A stretch of 64,000 nt of DNA from a virus, in the IMG/VR virus record IMGVR_UViG_3300034093_003283. One strand, 5' to 3'. Made by a program: the position numbers and the translations under genes. The notes beneath the pieces were generated by a model that was not told the DNA's origin, searched no databases, and was given only the letters and a program-made list of their open reading frames with translations. Numbering within the stretch: the first letter of the stretch is position 1; the number at the start of each line of letters is the position of its first letter. Shown one piece after another: positions 55,946 to 62,600 of this stretch.

Positions 55946-56383
55946 ACAGGATTACTGTTTCCAAAATTCGACCAACTGTACCCAAACATGATTGGTCTAG
56001 ACCAGATTACCGATATGTTGCAAGCTGCAACCAAAGATATTGCGAAATCTGTACCAACTTATCCCCCATACAATATCAAACAAATCAAAGACAACAAGTT
56101 CGTCATCGAAATGGCTGTTGCTGGATTTGGAAAATCTGATATTGAAATTACCATGGAAGGTAATAAGTTGGCCATCAAAGGTGCCTCTAAAGAGGATGAT
56201 AACCAGGACTATCTCTACAAAGGTATTGCCAACCGTGCATTTGAACGCACCTTCACATTGAAGGATACGATTGAAATTAAAAATGCTGAATTGGTTAATG
56301 GTATGCTTAAGGTGTGGTTGGAAAATATGGTGAAGGCTCAAGACGCCATCAAGAAAATTTCCATTCAAACAAAGGAAGACTAA
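55943..56383 (+). CDS. Small heat-shock protein (Hsp20, IbpA-like)
   Basis: 'YPPYNI', 'IEMAVAGF', 'YL.KGIA.R.F.R.F.L', 'A.L.NGML', C-terminal I-x-I. Confidence 0.93.
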   Translation: MTGLLFPKFDQLYPNMIGLDQITDMLQAATKDIAKSVPTYPPYNIKQIKDNKFVIEMAVAGFGKSDIEITMEGNKLAIKGASKEDDNQDYLYKGIANRAFERTFTLKDTIEIKNAELVNGMLKVWLENMVKAQDAIKKISIQTKED

Positions 56384-56469
56384 TGTTTAAAAAACTATTT
56401 TCAAGTATATTGGAAGCCATAGAGGCTATCAAGAAACACAGGTCAGACCGTACCTTAAAAGGTAGATAA
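56383..56469 (+). CDS. 28-aa peptide coupled to hsp20 (MFKKLFSSILEAIEAIKKHRSDRTLKGR)
   Basis: ATG overlaps the hsp20 stop (TAATG); ends just before the terminator; amphipathic N-terminus. Confidence 0.4.
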   Translation: MFKKLFSSILEAIEAIKKHRSDRTLKGR

Positions 56470-56473
56470 CCAT

Positions 56474-56500
56474 AAGGGGTCTTGACAGACCCCTTTTTTT
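56474..56500 (+). terminator. Intrinsic terminator overlapping a sigma70 promoter
   Basis: AAGGGGTCT-TGAC-AGACCCCTT plus T run; TTGACA (56482)-17 nt-TATAAT (56505) overlaps it. Confidence 0.8.
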
Positions 56501-56519
56501 GTTGTATAATGGTGTCATT

Positions 56520-56714
56520 ATGAAAACTGTTAAAACTTCCATTCGCAAATTACGCAACCGCTTGAACCCAAGTGAAATCTATTTTACTCAATCTGATTGG
56601 GATCCCAAAGAGATTGATGGTGTACTATTTCTGCCTGTGGCGGAACAGATACCTATTCCTAGAGGCCGCATGTTAAAATGGATGCGTAAAGATTCTTTAG
56701 AATATGTTAAATAA
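56520..56714 (+). CDS. Small hypothetical protein, probably leaderless
   Basis: ATG 9 nt after the -10 box; no SD. Confidence 0.5.
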   Translation: MKTVKTSIRKLRNRLNPSEIYFTQSDWDPKEIDGVLFLPVAEQIPIPRGRMLKWMRKDSLEYVK

Positions 56715-56715
56715 C

Positions 56716-56790
56716 GCCCATATAGCTTAATGGTAAAGCAGGGAACTCATAATTCCTTGAGTGGGGGTTCAATTCCCTCTGTGGGCACCA
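56716..56790 (+). tRNA. tRNA with CAT anticodon (elongator Met or lysidine-type Ile2)
   Basis: GCCCATA/TGTGGGC acceptor stem, CT-CAT-AA loop, TTCAATT T-loop, CCA. Confidence 0.88.
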
Positions 56791-56804
56791 ATTGAAAGTG
56801 ATAT

Positions 56805-57323
56805 GTGAAACAAAAATTTCGTGATGCTTATATGAAGGTGGCAGAGACTTTTGCAGAACTGTCTTCCGCCAGACGCCTTCATGTTGGCGCAATTATAGTG
56901 AAAGATGATAGAATTATATCTATTGGATACAATGGTATGCCATCTGGTTGGGATAACAACTGTGAAGATAAAGAATACATGGACCAAACGGCGGGTGGTT
57001 GGTTGTCACCTGAAGAAATTGAAGAACAGTGGCCATGGAGTGAACAACAGTTACCAAAAACTGAAGACCTTCCATGGCTTCGTTATAAGTTAAAAACAAA
57101 ACCGGAGGTTCTTCATGCAGAAACTAATGCAATCGCTAAGCTGGCAAGATCGAATGAATCTGGCCTTGGGGCTCATCTCTTTGTTACTCATGCACCTTGT
57201 TTGGACTGTGCCAAGCTTGTTTACCAATCTGGTATCAATAGTGTTTATTATCGCAATAGTTATCGTATCCAAGATGGCTTACAATTCTTGGATAAAGCAG
57301 GAGTGAAAGTGGAAAAGATGTGA
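56805..57323 (+). CDS. cd: dCMP deaminase
   Basis: 'VGA.IVK..RIIS.GYNG', HAE, PCLDC zinc motifs. Confidence 0.92.
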   Translation: MKQKFRDAYMKVAETFAELSSARRLHVGAIIVKDDRIISIGYNGMPSGWDNNCEDKEYMDQTAGGWLSPEEIEEQWPWSEQQLPKTEDLPWLRYKLKTKPEVLHAETNAIAKLARSNESGLGAHLFVTHAPCLDCAKLVYQSGINSVYYRNSYRIQDGLQFLDKAGVKVEKM

Positions 57324-57366
57324 ATCTCTAAATAAGCCTGGGACATTATTGTCCAAAGGAGTTCCC

Positions 57367-57879
57367 ATGCGTGTTAGGGTAGTGAATTGTCCAGACAAAG
57401 ACTTCAAGCCTTTTGTAGAAAGAGCTGCCCAATTCTACGCCAAAGAACTTGTGCCTAACACCAGAATACGAAACAACTGTTTTACTGAAATTAAATTTGA
57501 TGAATCCATACAAGAATATGGGTTTGCAAGTGTTAAAGAATACAATACAAGAAACAAACCAAGACAATTTTTGATAGAGATTCATCCAGGCATTGGGTCC
57601 AGAAGAATACTAGAAACACTGGCCCATGAAATGGTTCATGTCAAACAGTACATTCAAAATGAAACCAACGACCAGCTGACCAAGTGGCGGGGTAAAAGGA
57701 TCAATTCTGACAAAGTGGACTATTGGGTGCAACCATGGGAAATAGATGCATATGGCCGTGAGACTGGACTACTAACAAAGTTTGCAATTTCAGAACATCT
57801 CTGGGAAATATTTGAAGATTTTGTTAACCCTGGAGAACCAATAGTTAAACAATCAATCCGTTGGAAAATAAAATCTTAA
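57367..57879 (+). CDS. Putative zinc metallopeptidase (HExxH)
   Basis: 'TLAHEMVHVKQ' and 'Y...PWE..A'. Confidence 0.7.
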   Translation: MRVRVVNCPDKDFKPFVERAAQFYAKELVPNTRIRNNCFTEIKFDESIQEYGFASVKEYNTRNKPRQFLIEIHPGIGSRRILETLAHEMVHVKQYIQNETNDQLTKWRGKRINSDKVDYWVQPWEIDAYGRETGLLTKFAISEHLWEIFEDFVNPGEPIVKQSIRWKIKS

Positions 57880-57899
57880 AAATATTTTTAAAAAACCGC

Positions 57900-57928
57900 T
57901 TGCCAAGGCTCAAAGTTTACTATATAAT
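57900..57928 (+). promoter_or_regulatory. Sigma70 promoter P1 of the tRNA-array leader
   Basis: TTGCCA-17 nt-TATAAT, with an A/T-rich tract upstream. Confidence 0.8.
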
Positions 57929-57960
57929 ACAAACATATTTAATTTTTTAGAAAGAAAAAA

Positions 57961-58080
57961 GTGTCTCTCATATCCCATAAGCCCTTTACGTTACAACTAG
58001 AGTATCGCACAATGAATTGCGCCGATAGCTCATGGGCGATTACAACCGGGTTTTGTGTAGATGAGGGATGGGACGGATAA
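57961..58080 (+). CDS. Putative attenuator leader peptide, 39 aa (MSLISHKPFTLQLEYRTMNCADSSWAITTGFCVDEGWDG)
   Basis: GTG start after purine-rich AGAAAG; lies between promoter and terminator; all 20 amino acids; 33 distinct codons in 39. Confidence 0.65.
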   Translation: MSLISHKPFTLQLEYRTMNCADSSWAITTGFCVDEGWDG

Positions 58081-58110
58081 AAAAGTTCTAAAAAAGACTC
58101 CAAACACAAG

Positions 58111-58140
58111 ACCCTAGACCTAAAAAATCTAGGGTTTTTT
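58111..58140 (+). terminator. Intrinsic terminator (putative attenuator) ahead of the tRNA array
   Basis: ACCCTAGA-9 nt-TCTAGGGT plus T run; its 5' arm can alternatively pair with 58048-58058. Confidence 0.8.
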
Positions 58141-58143
58141 GTT

Positions 58144-58195
58144 TGTTGTTTCAATACAACACAGTGGTTGCCAGAATCTTTGGTTCTGATACAAT
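58144..58195 (+). promoter_or_regulatory. Palindromic site plus sigma70 promoter P2 of the tRNA array
   Basis: TGTTGT-N6-ACAACA (58144-58161), then TTGCCA-16 nt-TACAAT with TG extension. Confidence 0.7.
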
Positions 58196-58202
58196 ACACA
58201 CT

Positions 58203-58227
58203 TGTTCTTTAAAAATTTGTTGTAGTT
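58203..58227 (+). promoter_or_regulatory. boxA-like antitermination element, copy 1
   Basis: TGTTCTTTAAAA resembles rrn boxA TGCTCTTTAACA; 24 nt are identical to 58931-58954. Confidence 0.7.
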
Positions 58228-58230
58228 TAT

Positions 58231-58304
58231 TCCCGAATGGTGTAGTGGCAGCACAGCAGACTTTGACTCTGTTAGTATAAGTTCGATTCTTATTTCGGGT
58301 GCCA
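58231..58304 (+). tRNA. tRNA-Gln(TTG)
   Basis: Cloverleaf; CT-TTG-AC loop; CCA. Confidence 0.9.
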
Positions 58305-58398
58305 TATTCAAACACATTATAGTGACGCATGAGCAGGTCACCAACTTCCGCTGGTTACGACAATCGTAAGTGAGTGAAGATAGTGTGTTTCAATATGG
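58302..58398 (+). ncRNA. Structured spacer RNA closed by a long stem
   Basis: CCATATT-C-AAACACATTAT pairs with ATAGTGTGTTT-C-AATATGG. Confidence 0.5.
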
Positions 58399-58489
58399 AA
58401 GATAATGCAGGTGGGATGGTCCGCCGACTAGCCTTGAAAACTAGGTTCTCTCAAAAAGGGATGGGGTTCGACTCCTCTGTCTTCCGCCA
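58397..58489 (+). tRNA. tRNA-Ser(TGA), atypical 8/4 fold
   Basis: GGAAGATA/TGTCTTCC 8-bp acceptor, 4-bp T stem, long variable arm, G73, CCA. Confidence 0.8.
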
Positions 58490-58497
58490 AATTTTAA

Positions 58498-58571
58498 CTG
58501 GGTATATGATAGTGGCAGTCGCCGAGGTTTGGAACCTTGTAGTGCAAGTTCGATTCTTGCTACCCAGACCA
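58498..58571 (+). tRNA. tRNA-Pro(TGG)
   Basis: CTGGGTA/TACCCAG; TT-TGG-AA loop; CCA. Confidence 0.88.
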
Positions 58572-58576
58572 AAAAC

Positions 58577-58666
58577 GGAGAGTGGGCAGGATGGTAATGC
58601 AGCGGATTGCTAATCCGTAGGCTCATGAAAGTGGGCCACAGGGTTCGACTCCCTGACTCTCCACCA
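58577..58666 (+). tRNA. tRNA-Ser(GCT)
   Basis: GGAGAGT/ACTCTCC; long variable arm; CCA. Confidence 0.9.
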
Positions 58667-58668
58667 AT

Positions 58669-58760
58669 GCCAGCGAGACTTGGTAGTCAGAGAGGTCTTA
58701 TACACCTTTTAGCGCCAGATTAGCGTTCTTGATAGGGTTCGATTCCCTACGCTGGTACCA
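58669..58760 (+). tRNA. Atypical tRNA with TAT anticodon (Ile-UAU-like)
   Basis: GCCAGCG/CGCTGGT acceptor, very small D arm, 6-bp anticodon stem with CT-TAT-AC loop, long variable region, canonical T arm, CCA. Confidence 0.65.
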
Positions 58761-58768
58761 GATTTTAT

Positions 58769-58844
58769 GTTGGTGTGACCCGAATGGCTAGGGAGCAGAT
58801 TGCAAATCTGTTATATGCAGGTTCAAATCCTGTCACCAACTCCA
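58769..58844 (+). tRNA. tRNA-Cys(GCA)
   Basis: GTTGGTG/CACCAAC; U73; CCA. Confidence 0.9.
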
Positions 58845-58848
58845 AACA

Positions 58849-58901
58849 TGTTGTAGAAATACAACAGTGCTGGTTGACAAAAGATGTGGTTGTGTTATAC
58901 T
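58849..58901 (+). promoter_or_regulatory. Palindromic site plus sigma70 promoter P3, internal to the array
   Basis: TGTTGT-N6-ACAACA (58849-58866), then TTGACA-16 nt-TATACT with TG extension. Confidence 0.75.
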
Positions 58902-58930
58902 TCATACATGAATTGAGAAATCAATCAAAC

Positions 58931-58954
58931 GTTCTTTAAAAATTTGTTGTAGTT
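58931..58954 (+). promoter_or_regulatory. boxA-like antitermination element, copy 2
   Basis: GTTCTTTAAAAATTTGTTGTAGTT, identical to 58204-58227. Confidence 0.7.
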
Positions 58955-58958
58955 AATT

Positions 58959-59033
58959 GCACCTATCGTCTATCGGTTAGGACGCTGCCCTTTCAAGGCG
59001 GAAAGAGGAGTTCGATTCTCCTTAGGTGTACCA
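58959..59033 (+). tRNA. tRNA-Glu(TTC)
   Basis: Cloverleaf; CT-TTC-AA loop; CCA. Confidence 0.9.
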
Positions 59034-59156
59034 TTTGTTTTGCTGATGTAAGCCATGAGGTAAACGTCAACCTTGAGTAACTCTGTATAGAAACGGTAAT
59101 TGCTGCAGCTAATTCCGTTGAGCATAGCAAATAGTGCGTCAGCAAAACAAATGGTA
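59029..59156 (+). ncRNA. Structured spacer RNA closed by a 22-bp stem
   Basis: TACCATTTGTTTTGCTGATGTA pairs with TGCGTCAGCAAAACAAATGGTA (20 Watson-Crick pairs plus 2 GU). Confidence 0.55.
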
Positions 59157-59162
59157 GTTTAT

Positions 59163-59237
59163 GGAGGTATAACTTAACGGCGAAAGTAGCTGGCTTTTAA
59201 CCAGTAAATCAGAGTTCGATTCTCTGTGCCTCTACCA
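59163..59237 (+). tRNA. tRNA-Lys(TTT)
   Basis: Cloverleaf; CT-TTT-AA loop; CCA. Confidence 0.9.
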
Positions 59238-59317
59238 TATAAAAACACATTTCAATAGTTTCGACTGTGATGGATAGTTTCTGTTTAGTACAGTATCCGA
59301 AGTGTGTTTCTATATGG
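59235..59317 (+). ncRNA. Structured spacer RNA, closing stem related to 58302-58398
   Basis: CCATATA-A-AAACACATTTC pairs with GAAGTGTGTTT-C-TATATGG. Confidence 0.5.
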
Positions 59318-59408
59318 AGCAATTGATGCTATGGCGTGTGCATCGGCGGACTGTAAATCCGTCCCCTCCGGGTAAACAATCTTGGTTCGACTCCAAGTTG
59401 CTCCACCA
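59316..59408 (+). tRNA. tRNA-Tyr(GTA)
   Basis: GGAGCAA/TTGCTCC; extended D stem; long variable arm; CCA. Confidence 0.85.
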
Positions 59409-59410
59409 AA

Positions 59411-59592
59411 TCCCGGTACTACTTCCGTTAAAGTAGCGTTTGATTAGCGATAGAGATCCGGTGGCAGAAGACCGTTAGCGGAGTAATCCTGAATCTGATA
59501 GGCAGAATCTCACTGCACACAGACTCCGAATAAATGAGATGGACAGAGTAACTGCTCAATTAAGGGCTGGCGTGGAACCCAGTAGCTTATAC
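59411..59592 (+). ncRNA. Unidentified multi-hairpin RNA (~180 nt)
   Basis: Non-coding gap between tRNAs with consecutive hairpins (CTACTT/AAGTAG, CGGT/ACCG, GGA-GTAA-TCC, ATCTCA/TGAGAT, CTGG/CCAG). Confidence 0.55.
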
Positions 59593-59598
59593 TAATTT

Positions 59599-59673
59599 GG
59601 TCTCAAAGTGTTCATGGACGCACGTATGCCTGTCACGCATAAAGAAGGGGATCGTTACCCCTTGGGACCGCCA
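59599..59673 (+). tRNA. tRNA-Asp(GTC)
   Basis: CT-GTC-AC loop; G73; CCA; T-loop reads ATCGTTA. Confidence 0.88.
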
Positions 59674-59681
59674 AGTTTTAT

Positions 59682-59757
59682 TCCGCAGTAGCTCAGTCGG
59701 TAGAGTAGATGACTGTTAATCATTTGGTCGGTGGTTCGAGCCCACCCTGTGGAGCCA
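59682..59757 (+). tRNA. tRNA-Asn(GTT)
   Basis: Canonical cloverleaf; CCA. Confidence 0.93.
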
Positions 59758-59765
59758 ATTTTTTC

Positions 59766-59842
59766 CCGTGTGTAGCTCAGCTAGGTAGAGCTCTTGGTTT
59801 GGGACCAAGTGGTCGCATGTTCGAATCGTGTCACACGGACCA
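59766..59842 (+). tRNA. tRNA-Pro(TGG), second divergent copy
   Basis: CCGTGTG/CACACGG; TT-TGG-GA loop; CCA. Confidence 0.92.
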
Positions 59843-59895
59843 ATTTCGCCTTTGTTGACGGCGTATAATAGGATAAGTTGTCAACAACAAATTTT

Positions 59896-59970
59896 GGGCT
59901 GGTAGTGATAATGGGAGCACAGGGGCTTTGCAAGCCTTTAGTCGGGGTTCGATCCCCCGCCGGTCCACCA
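59896..59970 (+). tRNA. tRNA-Ala(TGC)
   Basis: G3-U70 identity pair; TT-TGC-AA loop; CCA. Confidence 0.9.
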
Positions 59971-59975
59971 AATTC

Positions 59976-60050
59976 GGTTCAGTAGCACAGTGGTAGTGCA
60001 ACTCCTTCATACGGAGTAGGTCGTTGGCTCGTATCCAACCTGAACCACCA
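59976..60050 (+). tRNA. tRNA with CAT anticodon (elongator Met or Ile2)
   Basis: GGTTCAG/CTGAACC; TT-CAT-AC loop; CCA; T-loop reads CTCGTAT. Confidence 0.85.
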
Positions 60051-60054
60051 GTAT

Positions 60055-60130
60055 GGGTCTTTAACTCAGTGAACAGAGTACTTGGCTACGAACCAAGAAG
60101 TCGTAGGTTTGAATCCTACAAGACCCTCCA
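60055..60130 (+). tRNA. tRNA-Arg(ACG)
   Basis: GGGTCTT/AAGACCC; CT-ACG-AA loop; CCA. Confidence 0.88.
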
Positions 60131-60131
60131 A

Positions 60132-60352
60132 GCCGTTCCGCTTTGTTAGCGGATACTGTGACCCACAGGATAGAAGTGAGGTGACTCTCACGGGTGGTAG
60201 TCTTTAAACCGAAAGGCCGCTGGCAGTGCGATAACGGTCCTGGTCGGGAAGCGGGTGGAGGGTGTGTGTTACAAGGCGTTGAACCAAACGGGGAGCCAAG
60301 TAACAACGGTGCGAGCTGACACACTAAATTACCGCCGCAGGACGCAGAGCAT
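60132..60352 (+). ncRNA. Unidentified GC-rich structured RNA (~220 nt)
   Basis: Nested stems (GTCCTG/CAGGAC, GCGG/CCGC, GTGTGT/ACACAC, TGTTAC/GTAACA) and GNRA loops (GAAA, GCGA). Confidence 0.6.
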
Positions 60353-60356
60353 TTAT

Positions 60357-60430
60357 ACCCCGTTAGCTCAAAGGTAGAGCACCCGGCTGATAACCGGGAG
60401 ACAGAGGATCGTTACCTCTACAGGGTACCA
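60357..60430 (+). tRNA. tRNA-Ile(GAT)
   Basis: CT-GAT-AA loop; CCA; T-loop reads ATCGTTA. Confidence 0.9.
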
Positions 60431-60436
60431 AATTTT

Positions 60437-60510
60437 TTCTCGCTGGTGTAATGGCAGCATAGCGGTCTCCAAAACCGTTGGTTGGGGTTCGAGTCCCTAG
60501 CGGGAAGCCA
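60437..60510 (+). tRNA. tRNA-Trp(CCA)
   Basis: CT-CCA-AA loop; G73; CCA. Confidence 0.9.
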
Positions 60511-60531
60511 ATTTTTATAAAGGTGATTGAT

Positions 60532-61020
60532 ATGAAAAAGTTCGACATAGAAGAAGTCAAAACATTCCTTGCAAAACAAGGACAAGATACCAAAGTGTAC
60601 CTTGGTGCTGACTCTGAAAGAATTAGAGTTAACGGTGTTTGGTATGCTGATTATGCTTTGGCTGTCGTAGTTCATATTGATGGCCGCCACGGTTGTAAGA
60701 TATTTGGTTATGTAGATAGAGAAATGGATTATGACCATAAGAAAAGTAAACCTGCTATGCGTCTGATGACAGAAGTATACAAGGTTTCAGAATTGTTCCA
60801 AAACTTGGCTGACGTATTAGAAGATTTTCATGTTGAAGTTCATTTGGACTTGAACAAATCTGATGAATTCGGAAGTTCATGTGTTGTGCAACAAGCAATA
60901 GGTTATATCAAAGGTACATGTAACATGACACCGATGGTTAAACCAGATGCACCTGCTGCTAGTTTCTGTGCCGATAGATTGAAAAGAATCTTGGCCGAAC
61001 AAGAAGCAGTGCATGTCTAA
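60532..61020 (+). CDS. RNase H-like YkuK/DUF458 family protein
   Basis: 'Y.G.DS', 'RL..EV', 'EVHLD.N', 'VKP.A.AAS..AD'; ATG at 60532 after AAGGTG. Confidence 0.75.
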   Translation: MKKFDIEEVKTFLAKQGQDTKVYLGADSERIRVNGVWYADYALAVVVHIDGRHGCKIFGYVDREMDYDHKKSKPAMRLMTEVYKVSELFQNLADVLEDFHVEVHLDLNKSDEFGSSCVVQQAIGYIKGTCNMTPMVKPDAPAASFCADRLKRILAEQEAVHV

Positions 61021-61051
61021 CAGACCTCCAAAGTAATTAAGTTTACTTTGG

Positions 61052-61127
61052 GCAGTGCTTAGTGTAGTGGTCTGCACCTCTCGCTGTGACCGAGATAGTA
61101 TGAGTTCGATCCTCATAGTGCTGCCCA
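61052..61127 (+). tRNA. tRNA-His(GTG)
   Basis: G-1:C73 pair; CT-GTG-AC loop; CCA. Confidence 0.9.
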
Positions 61128-61137
61128 AAGTAAATTT

Positions 61138-61212
61138 GCCTTGTTAACTCAGCGGTAGAGTGTCTCCCTTACAAGGAGAAGGTCGGCGGTTCGATCCCGT
61201 CACAAGGTACCA
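61138..61212 (+). tRNA. tRNA-Val(TAC)
   Basis: Canonical cloverleaf; CCA. Confidence 0.93.
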
Positions 61213-61216
61213 ACAT

Positions 61217-61292
61217 GCTGCTTTAGCTGATGTGGTCATAGCGCTGGTTTGAAGAACCAGTGAAAGAGGTTCGATCCCTCTAGGCAGCACCA
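61217..61292 (+). tRNA. tRNA-Phe(GAA)
   Basis: TT-GAA-GA loop; CCA. Confidence 0.88.
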
Positions 61293-61300
61293 ATTATTAT

Positions 61301-61377
61301 ACCCAAGTGACGAAATTGGCAAACGTGTCTCTCTCAAAAGGAGAATTTTGTGGGTTCGAATCCCATCTTGGGTACCA
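61301..61377 (+). tRNA. tRNA-Leu(CAA), short variable loop
   Basis: ACCCAAG/CTTGGGT; CT-CAA-AA loop; CCA. Confidence 0.88.
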
Positions 61378-61378
61378 T

Positions 61379-61452
61379 GCTCTCATAGTATAATGGCATT
61401 ACACATCCTTGGTAAGGATGAAAACCAAGTTCAATCCTTGGTGGGAGCACCA
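61379..61452 (+). tRNA. tRNA-Thr(GGT)
   Basis: TT-GGT-AA loop; CCA. Confidence 0.9.
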
Positions 61453-61601
61453 ATATTTTTTATTTCATCCAGTACAAAAAGCTGTTGCCTTGTTTCAAAG
61501 GATGGTGTAAAATCATTGCTGTTGGTGAATGATTTTGTTTCTTGATATGATTCCAATTTATTGGCCATATCGTATAAATCTTTAACATAATTTTTTTCCA
61601 T
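61431..61601 (-). CDS. Small antisense hypothetical protein (56 aa) inside the tRNA array
   Basis: Fills the Thr-Leu gap; ATG at 61601 lies just downstream of a minus-strand AATAAATA late-promoter-like box. Confidence 0.4.
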   Translation of the reverse strand: MEKNYVKDLYDMANKLESYQETKSFTNSNDFTPSFETRQQLFVLDEIKNIGAPTKD

Positions 61602-61614
61602 AGAAGTATTTATT

Positions 61615-61691
61615 GCCCCGGTGACGGAATTGGTATACGTGTTGGTCTTAGAAGCCAAATTTTGAGAGTTCGAGTCTCTCCTGGGGCACCA
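61615..61691 (+). tRNA. tRNA-Leu(TAG), short variable loop
   Basis: GCCCCGG/CTGGGGC; CT-TAG-AA loop; CCA. Confidence 0.9.
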
Positions 61692-61698
61692 AGTTTTT

Positions 61699-61768
61699 AG
61701 TTACAGTCAGTACTGTGGGAAGTACAGGTGGACAACACCAGGACAAGGTTCGAATCCAAACTGTAATT
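61699..61768 (+). pseudogene. tRNA-like cloverleaf without CCA (pseudo-tRNA or mimic)
   Basis: TTACAGT/ACTGTAA closing stem, GTACT/AGTAC arm, GGTG-GACAA-CACC arm, GG-TTCGAAT-CC T-loop. Confidence 0.45.
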
Positions 61769-61771
61769 TTT

Positions 61772-61846
61772 CTGGCGTTAGTATAATGGACAATACAGTA
61801 GGCTTCTACCCTTCTAATGGGAGTTCGATTCTCTCACGCCGGACCA
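61772..61846 (+). tRNA. tRNA-Arg(TCT)
   Basis: CT-TCT-AC loop; CCA. Confidence 0.87.
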
Positions 61847-61850
61847 GATT

Positions 61851-61933
61851 GCGAGTATGGTGGAATAGGTAGACACAAGAGACTTAAAATCTCTCGCTTC
61901 GGCGTACCGGTTCGATTCCGGTTACTCGTACCA
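61851..61933 (+). tRNA. tRNA-Leu(TAA)
   Basis: CT-TAA-AA loop; variable arm CGC-TTCG-GCG; CCA. Confidence 0.92.
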
Positions 61934-61951
61934 AGTATACCAAAATATTGG

Positions 61952-61980
61952 TTGACAGTTGAATAGAAAGCATATATAAT
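61952..61980 (+). promoter_or_regulatory. Sigma70 promoter for tRNA-Gly(GCC) and tRNA-Thr(TGT)
   Basis: TTGACA-17 nt-TATAAT. Confidence 0.8.
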
Positions 61981-61989
61981 AACTCTATT

Positions 61990-62064
61990 GCGGGTATGGT
62001 GCTAGTGGTAACACAAGACCTTGCCAAGGTTTAGTTGTGAGTTCGATTCTCACTACCCGCTCCA
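61990..62064 (+). tRNA. tRNA-Gly(GCC)
   Basis: GCGGGTA/TACCCGC; U73; CCA. Confidence 0.92.
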
Positions 62065-62069
62065 GATTC

Positions 62070-62143
62070 GCCCTATTAGTATAATGGTATTACACCTGTT
62101 TTGTAATCAGGTTACGGCAGTTCGATTCTGTCATGGGGCACCA
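62070..62143 (+). tRNA. tRNA-Thr(TGT)
   Basis: TT-TGT-AA loop; CCA. Confidence 0.9.
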
Positions 62144-62151
62144 AATAAGTA

Positions 62152-62180
62152 TTGACTACAACAGATTTTTAGTGTATAAT
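62152..62180 (+). promoter_or_regulatory. Sigma70 promoter for tRNA-Gly(TCC)
   Basis: TTGACT-17 nt-TATAAT. Confidence 0.75.
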
Positions 62181-62189
62181 AGTTTATGT

Positions 62190-62263
62190 GCGGGATTAGT
62201 TTAATGGTAAAACAGCAGATTTCCAATCTTCGGTCATCAGTTCGATTCTGATATCCCGCTCCA
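62190..62263 (+). tRNA. tRNA-Gly(TCC)
   Basis: GCGGGAT/ATCCCGC; U73; CCA. Confidence 0.92.
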
Positions 62264-62269
62264 TTTAAT

Positions 62270-62336
62270 GCGGTCGTTATAGAACAGTTTAGGTGTCCAA
62301 CTTAAGCAGTATGTGCGAATCATACAGGCCGCTCCA
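62270..62336 (+). ncRNA. D-arm-less tRNA-Gly(TCC)-like RNA (67 nt)
   Basis: GCGGTC/GGCCGC acceptor with T-CCA end, 7-bp stem with TG-TCC-AA loop, GTATG-TGCGAAT-CATAC T arm, no D stem. Confidence 0.6.
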
Positions 62337-62354
62337 TTTATTTTTGAGGTCATT

Positions 62355-62600
62355 ATGAACATCACACCACTTGCAAATAAAATTGTTATTAAACGAATCG
62401 AAGGTTCTAAGCAAACAGAATCAGGCATCATTCTACAGAGAACAGATGAACCTGATAGAGCAGAAGTTATGGCCATCGGTCCTGATGTTGATGAAGTTTC
62501 TGTTGGTGATATTGTTCTTTTGGATTGGAATGCTGCAATGAAATCCGGCGACTACTATGTTGCCAAAATTGATGGCGTAGTTTTCGTATACGGAGAATAA
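62355..62600 (+). CDS. groES: GroES-like co-chaperonin
   Basis: 'I.PL..KIVIKR......T.SGIIL......A.V.AIG......V.VGD.VL'. Confidence 0.85.
   Translation: MNITPLANKIVIKRIEGSKQTESGIILQRTDEPDRAEVMAIGPDVDEVSVGDIVLLDWNAAMKSGDYYVAKIDGVVFVYGE

Follow-up and report, generated by a model that had tools for sequence, protein, structure and literature searches.

The window analysed here is a 64,000-nucleotide stretch of DNA from an uncultured T4-like phage, whose clamp-loader protein is ~60% identical to its cyanophage and Methylophilales phage counterparts. GenBank phages hold no DNA-level match to the leader region. The region of interest lies on the plus strand and consists of a promoter (P1), a short open reading frame (ORF) termed the leader, an intrinsic terminator, a second promoter (P2), and a large array of tRNA genes. 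P1 (57900-57928, plus strand) reads TTGCCA-17-TATAAT and, as the earlier note on this DNA had proposed, resembles a sigma70 promoter, matching the consensus at 11 of 12 positions. The promoter is conserved in relatives as TTGCCA/TTGACA-17-(C)TATATAAT, and its inferred transcription start is at ~57935.

The leader ORF (57961-58080, plus strand) begins with GTG and contains 39 codons followed by a stop codon. A recount agrees with the earlier description of an ORF that encodes all 20 amino acids with 33 distinct codons among 39. A weak Shine-Dalgarno-like sequence, AGAAAG (57949-57954, plus strand), is found 6 nt upstream of the GTG start. Upstream of P1, at 57349-57879, is a gene for a 176-aa HExxH protein with weak SprT/WLM-like matches and matches to PHROGs of unknown function; in every relative retrieved, this gene is conserved next to the leader on its upstream side. 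Further upstream, within 56474-56716, a perfect consensus promoter (56482-56510) shares sequence with a terminator hairpin. Next comes a 71-aa ORF (56499-56714), which ends 1 base before a tRNA-Met (56716).

The tRNA array (58231-62263, plus strand) contains 27 called tRNAs, and one tRNA-Met lies upstream of the leader. A probable tRNA-Ser(UGA) with an unusual D arm is located at 58401-58485 on the plus strand, within the interval 58397-58485. It is detected by ARAGORN at a lower threshold only and gives a weak tRNA-Sec-like match in Rfam (33.7 bits). Together, the called tRNAs and the probable tRNA-Ser cover all 20 amino acids, in keeping with the earlier count of about 29 tRNAs; the tRNA-Ser(UGA) would bring the number to 29 and supply a TCN decoder. 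Inside the array are also a 180-aa ORF (60478-61020) and, at 60131-60356, a GC-rich gap of ~220 nt in which no tRNA is called.

Relatives of the Leader Unit

Relatives were retrieved through the upstream 176-aa HExxH protein, which yielded 80 IMG/VR loci. A leader-peptide profile finds the ORF in 43 of the 80, and six more diverged versions are seen by eye. The unit of promoter, ORF, and terminator stands directly before a tRNA array in at least 49 of the 80 loci. Scanning for the hairpin-core pattern of the leader (see below) adds 54 further loci with a terminator and a downstream tRNA, and the ORF is present in 17 of the 18 new distinct leaders found in this way. The distinct leader homologues number ~61 in total, all from uncultured T4-like phages. 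Every relative with downstream sequence has a tRNA, usually tRNA-Gln, within ~120 nt of the leader unit, and complete arrays hold 23-29 tRNAs in most lineages. Three distant relatives of the 176-aa gene are without the leader ORF (L044:4700-4850, L046:4550-4640, and L058:4680-4760). In these, a different conserved structured element (ATGCGG...CCGCTCCA) lies between a promoter and a tRNA-Gly.

The leader is nearly absent from annotated databases. Pfam and PHROG profiles contain no family for the leader peptide at E <= 1. A search of 5.8 billion proteins with the stop-to-stop translation of the leader returns one near-identical gene call, and gene callers almost never report the ORF. Among the Rfam leader models, only Thr_leader matches, scoring 23.5 bits where the threshold is 55 (E = 0.45); this match covers the terminator alone and is at chance level. 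The Rfam T-box model has no match at E <= 1 across 56300-62600. GenBank phages reached through the 176-aa protein offered nothing useful: distant homologues of this protein occur in Caulobacter phage Cr30 and Stenotrophomonas phage DLP6, and neither has annotated tRNA genes within 3.5 kb on either side of the homologue. A literature search turned up no publication that describes such an element or deals with attenuation of tRNA genes in phages.

Translation of the Leader

Several signatures indicate that the leader ORF is translated. The pN/pS ratio in frame is 0.475 (pS 0.272, pN 0.129), compared with 1.275 in both shifted frames of the same alignment. Stops interrupt the two other frames in 39 and 43 of 43 leaders, respectively. 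Length differences inspected by eye are multiples of three, and in-frame insertions of 6 and 9 nt lengthen the central hairpin in relatives. The short ORF, whose conservation had been put forward as a check of the earlier claim, is kept in frame in the ~61 distinct relatives with these coding signatures.

The start codons follow the rules of translation initiation. In 28 distinct leaders, which are leaderless forms in the sense that the mRNA has no 5' untranslated region, the start is 3-7 nt past the -10 box, and in 23 of them it is at exactly 6 nt. This position coincides with the expected transcription start. Leaderless initiation requires ATG, and all 28 begin with ATG. The 33 leadered forms use ATG (13), GTG (16), or TTG (4), and all except one have a Shine-Dalgarno-like motif of the GGAG, GGAA, or GAAAG type upstream of the start (32/33). 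An alignment that seemed to show deletion of the ORF start had raised the possibility of a non-coding RNA. This candidate was rejected, as the shorter relatives have an in-frame ATG at the transcription start.

The peptide had been expected to diverge freely, and in this respect the expectation failed. The overall pN/pS of 0.48 is accompanied by a conserved peptide core, EYRT..C.D.SW..G.CV. The core is conserved in part because the same codons form the conserved central hairpin. Lineages differ in the frame in which the C-terminal part is read; the openness of the ORF is kept there and the peptide sequence is not. In leaders of the window type, the C-terminal extension (codons 34-38, 58060-58074) is complementary to the start-codon region (57961-57971). 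Pairing of the extension with the start region could prevent renewed initiation once the first ribosome has gone by.

Amino-Acid and Codon Diversity

The window leader is diverse by each measure used. It alone contains 20 amino-acid types among the 273 small ORFs (30-44 aa) of the window, and 39-residue windows of the phage's own long ORFs contain 20 types with P = 0.0036. Its first repeated codon is codon 28. The 33 distinct codons compare with 24.0 +/- 2.6 in 39-residue windows of the phage's own proteins (P(>=33) = 0.0004). With decoding classes assigned by simple wobble rules made for this analysis, the leader uses 24 of the 27 classes of the window tRNA set, compared with 18.1 +/- 2.4 in the null (P = 0.0024). 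The earlier claim of unusual codon diversity relied on a statistic that is post hoc for the window alone, yet the property recurs in independent relatives.

Leaders of 31-43 codons mostly contain 19-20 amino-acid types and exceed every null tested. Several leaders of 31-32 residues contain all 20 types, for which the chance is ~2e-4 in protein windows of equal length. Twelve divergent representatives sharing <50% identity all exceed composition-matched shuffles, by ~1.5 to 2.6 SD; the combined Fisher value of 3e-9 assumes independence, and the representatives are not fully independent. Some of the amino-acid diversity comes with the conserved core by inheritance. When the conserved residues are fixed and the rest are redrawn from the family's own variable-position pool, the summed number of distinct types is 209 compared with 189 +/- 3.8, and none of 5000 simulations is as high. 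In this core-fixed simulation, the variable positions complement the conserved core and raise diversity beyond chance. The codon diversity sought in homologues is high, and high diversity of both amino acids and codons is a property of the whole family.

A cluster of regulatory codons is not seen in the leaders. By eye, the leaders listed contain no codon or amino-acid run beyond doublets, and it is diversity that is maximised. Gly and Val occur in the window leader only within or after segment B, the strand of the antiterminator described below, and therefore would not be sensed in this leader. Small-array lineages (6-13 tRNAs), which comprise few independent lineages, have shorter leaders with fewer amino-acid types (16-18). 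Examples are L016, L023, L033, and L073, with arrays read in L209, L215, L223, and L257. The amino acids absent from the small-array leaders (Ala, Gln, Ile) tend to be absent from the array too. With so few independent small arrays, a match between the amino-acid content of leader and array amounts to no more than a hint.

Terminator and Antiterminator

The intrinsic terminator, previously placed at 58111-58140, extends over 58108-58140 on the plus strand according to folding and relatives. Its stem pairs 58108-58118 with 58128-58138, and the T-run occupies 58135-58140. A simple terminator scanner lists it on the minus strand only, probably because the loop of the plus-strand hairpin is 9 nt. 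All relatives have a hairpin and T-run, and the stem sequences change with matching arms.

The 5' strand of the putative antiterminator is segment B (GGGTTTTGTGT, 58048-58058, plus strand), which coincides with codons 30-33 of the ORF. Its partner is segment A' (ACACAAGACCC, 58104-58114, plus strand), the 3' strand, which overlaps the 5' arm of the terminator. The 11-pair helix of B with A' that had been described as exclusive with the terminator is upheld, with a calculated energy of -18.0 kcal/mol. The extended terminator hairpin is calculated at -19.8 kcal/mol. Across all 48 distinct leaders compared, the best partner of the region of the terminator 5' arm is the 3' end of the ORF. These duplexes range from -13 to -23 kcal/mol, each with p <= 0.05 against dinucleotide shuffles. 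Segment B ends <=18 nt before the stop codon in these 48 leaders, and occasionally it reaches a few nt into or past the stop. The stop codon is 0-5 nt after B in about half of the members. It is 18 nt past B in the window type, where B would lie outside the footprint of a ribosome paused at the stop.

The sequences of the two strands vary by lineage while remaining complementary. The window pair GGGTTTTGTGT/ACACAAGACCC is replaced in other lineages by GGGTTCGT/ACGAACCC, AGAGGTTA/TAACCTCT, GGGGTTTGTA/TACAAACCCC, or GGGGGTAGTGGAA/TTTCACAACCCTC. Covariation was measured on a MAFFT alignment of 36 sequences that was not fitted to structure. On this alignment the 11 window B:A' pairs are formed in 78% of cells, and six of the 11 show double changes. 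The B:A' covariation score is 0.164 compared with 0.119 +/- 0.012 for shuffles, none of which is as high (0/500). The terminator on the identical alignment has 76% pairing and a score of 0.161, so B:A' covaries as strongly as the terminator itself. The covariation anticipated for a terminator and a mutually exclusive antiterminator is therefore present in both helices.

Folding calculations suggest how the two helices compete. The full-length RNA adopts the terminator fold at equilibrium in 96% of leaders, and this fold keeps its advantage in 87% when a ribosome is placed upstream of B. When the footprint is at the stop codon, the terminator forms in 98%. In nascent RNA without the 3' arm of the terminator, B:A' is the minimum free energy (MFE) structure in 81% of leaders. 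The nascent RNA of the window, when transcribed to 58125, folds B:A' with or without a ribosome at codon 12. It loses B:A' when the ribosome covers B; folding with B blocked had been put forward as a check in the earlier note. With a ribosome stalled upstream, the antiterminator is predicted in the nascent RNA but not at equilibrium, where the terminator wins. Since the terminator is favoured at equilibrium even with the upstream stall, any switch must be kinetic. The calculations indicate that the antiterminator is a kinetic alternative, like that of classical attenuators.

Central Hairpin, Segment A, and Spacer

At z = -3.7, the leader RNA counts as well folded. Within the ORF, codons 13-25 (57997-58035, plus strand) are predicted to form a central hairpin with the core ATCGC...GCGAT, and a central hairpin is also predicted in nearly all relatives. 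The core is near-invariant, reading TATCGC...GCGATA, or TATCAC...GTGATA with a G-U intermediate, and near-invariance holds even at third codon positions. The conserved peptide core is largely explained by this hairpin, because it pairs Tyr TAT with Asp GAT. The apical stem varies in length, and by eye it changes with matching arms and in-frame insertions. From its predicted fold, the central hairpin may serve as a pause site for RNA polymerase or a speed bump for the ribosome.

Segment A (CATAAGCCC, codons 6-8, 57976-57984, plus strand) is a possible anti-antiterminator partner of B in both the MFE structure and the RNAalifold consensus. The energy of the A:B helix, -9.6 kcal/mol in the window, is no better than that of shuffles, and the helix was dropped as an element defined by energy. 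It is kept only as a weak element supported by position: in 13 of 18 clusters, B's partner has its centre within codons 4-9 (p = 1.6e-5, for a range of codons chosen post hoc). Any role of segment A in the switch is thus presumptive, and an untranslated leader may either terminate, as in trp, or read through by default. The Trp codon was also considered as a stall site and rejected, as it is by eye only 6-12 nt before B and part of B would lie under the stalled ribosome. Relatives share a near-invariant spacer, AAGTTCTAAAAAAGAC (58083-58098, plus strand), between the stop codon and A'. In the window type its pairing partner is the 5' UTR (TTTTTTAGAA), and in the leaderless type it is a local AGAAC.

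Promoter P2 and Access to the tRNA Array

A second promoter, P2 (58168-58195, plus strand), is matched as TTGCCA-16-TACAAT downstream of the terminator. It is directly followed by a boxA-like motif, TGTTCTTTAAAAATTTGT (58203-58227, plus strand), that is near-invariant in relatives; the strict pattern used in this analysis finds this one copy only. P2 and the boxA-like motif follow the terminator in the window and in most relatives. Where P2 is downstream of the terminator, as in most members, read-through from P1 would only add to P2, and the attenuator could do no more than modulate expression. Eight loci, which come from at least two lineages, have their first tRNA 3-15 nt after the T-run and no second promoter. 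L020 has a boxA-like motif after the terminator and no promoter between them. The eight loci have no room for a promoter, so their first tRNAs are reachable only from upstream through the terminator. This arrangement argues that termination is conditional. The earlier caveat that P2 reduces the attenuator to a booster of expression thus applies to the window and most members and does not extend to the eight relatives without P2.

Proposed Mechanism and Alternatives

The explanation we favour, with confidence somewhat better than even, is that the leader is a ribosome-mediated (leader-peptide) transcription attenuator that would gate read-through from P1 into the phage tRNA array. RNA polymerase would start at ~57935 and transcribe the short translated ORF. 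The last codons of the ORF contain B, which could pair with the stretch leading up to and into the terminator 5' arm. If B is uncovered when A' emerges, B:A' would form first, block the terminator, and let transcription continue into the tRNA genes. If a fast ribosome is on or just past B, A' would remain free, the terminator would form, and transcription would stop at 58140. Termination would thus depend on translation of the leader. A shortage of almost any charged tRNA, as in starvation or under attack by host anticodon nucleases, would slow the ribosome and yield more phage tRNA, making the circuit a negative feedback on tRNA supply.

What the attenuator would respond to is suggested by its codons. 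As the leader contains one of nearly each amino acid and no single-codon run, the most likely signal is overall elongation speed. The leader is probably a translation-speed sensor that raises tRNA output when protein synthesis falters. A stricter version is that the leader senses all aminoacyl-tRNAs by drawing on nearly every amino acid and tRNA species once, such that a shortage of any single charged tRNA stalls the pioneer ribosome, traps the antiterminator, and de-represses the replacement tRNAs. We hold this version tentatively, at a little under an even chance. The translated ORF, the intrinsic terminator, and the mutually exclusive antiterminator expected of a leader-peptide attenuator were all found. 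The classical cluster of regulatory codons was not, and for want of that cluster the leader is placed outside every described leader family.

Other readings account for part of the same evidence. The leader could be an attenuator with a specific signal, in which the nascent peptide core or the central hairpin stalls the ribosome in answer to one factor, be it a metabolite, one particular tRNA, or a protein of the phage or host. On this view the amino-acid diversity would be secondary, and TnaC, SpeFL, and the Erm leaders would be the nearest parallels. The conserved peptide core (pN/pS 0.48), a Trp in almost every leader listed, and the near-invariance of the hairpin core down to third codon positions are all in its favour. 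Yet the conserved residues coincide with the hairpin stem, where an RNA constraint can explain them, and the C-terminal part is in different frames across lineages. The variable positions also complement the core to give diversity beyond chance, and we consider a specific signal unlikely. The leader could instead be an ordinary small protein gene that has its own promoter and a constitutive terminator, the array being driven by P2 and internal promoters and the B:A' pairing being incidental or mRNA-stabilising. We regard this as quite unlikely, given that B:A' covaries as strongly as the terminator, that in eight relatives no promoter separates the terminator from the first tRNA, and that the unit invariably heads a tRNA array. 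Moreover, the ORF keeps its openness and not its C-terminal peptide, and it belongs to no Pfam or PHROG family. These points are weighed against a coding ORF under some purifying selection (pN/pS 0.48), for which a peptide function of its own is possible, against the presence of P2 after the terminator in most members, and against the one gene call in the protein database searched.

A switch that operates independently of translation is very unlikely in our estimation. Here A:B and the central hairpin, as an RNA switch or stable small RNA, would bind a ligand, protein, or tRNA and set the fate of B, with the reading frame being tolerated. Such an RNA should be well folded and conserved at the nucleotide level, as the leader (z = -3.7), its hairpin core, and its spacer are. 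It does not explain the frame-specific excess of synonymous change or start codons that obey the rules of leaderless and leadered initiation, and no Rfam model matches, T-box included.

Significance and Comparison with Known Systems

Phage tRNA arrays are discussed as matching codon usage or as replacing host tRNAs destroyed by infection or defence nucleases. To our knowledge, the regulation of large phage tRNA arrays is essentially unknown. A conserved attenuator before such arrays would show that phages gauge how well translation performs and set their tRNA supply to match. If the leader senses all aminoacyl-tRNAs, it would form a homeostatic circuit for translation capacity that has no described counterpart. 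The leader is also a compact genetic part of ~200 nt with a sigma70 promoter, and it could report global elongation stress.

Aspects of the phage element resemble several regulators of translation-related genes. The T-box (RF00230) likewise links tRNA charging to the choice between terminator and antiterminator before translation-related genes. Unlike the phage leader, it binds uncharged tRNA directly, needs no ORF, and contains Stem I, a specifier, and the T-box motif, all absent from the phage leader. As in rrn-type P1/P2 operons, the phage locus combines tandem promoters with a boxA-like motif downstream of P2 (58203-58227); we know of no translated leader attenuator between P1 and P2 in rRNA or tRNA operons. 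Leaders of the ermC, cat, bmrCD, and vmlR type respond to antibiotics through specific arrest peptides. They share with the phage leader the principle that a slowed ribosome on a short ORF remodels the downstream RNA and switches on genes that bring relief. The phage leader differs from them in its cargo of a tRNA set, its location in a phage genome, and the absence of a known arrest motif.

The closest likeness is to the leaders of amino-acid operons, such as trpL, hisL, pheL, leuL, thrL, and ilvL (RF00513, RF00514, RF00512, RF00506). Both have a promoter-proximal short translated ORF and a terminator with a mutually exclusive antiterminator. In the phage leader, too, ribosome position would choose the fold, and a hairpin within the leader may provide the pause. 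The phage leader departs from these in holding nearly one of each amino acid with no regulatory codon run, and in having an ORF that runs through the antiterminator strand, whereas theirs ends before it. It is also phage-borne, would regulate tRNA genes, and matches no leader model in Rfam. Multivalent attenuators are known, with thr responding to Thr and Ile and ilvGMEDA to Ile, Leu, and Val, that is, to two or three amino acids through clustered codons, and attenuation of pheST controls a gene of the translation apparatus. The phage leader is like these in that more than one amino acid and translation genes are involved, and unlike them in presenting up to 20 types about once each and in controlling tRNA genes. 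It would thereby extend leader-peptide attenuation from single amino acids to the whole amino-acid set.
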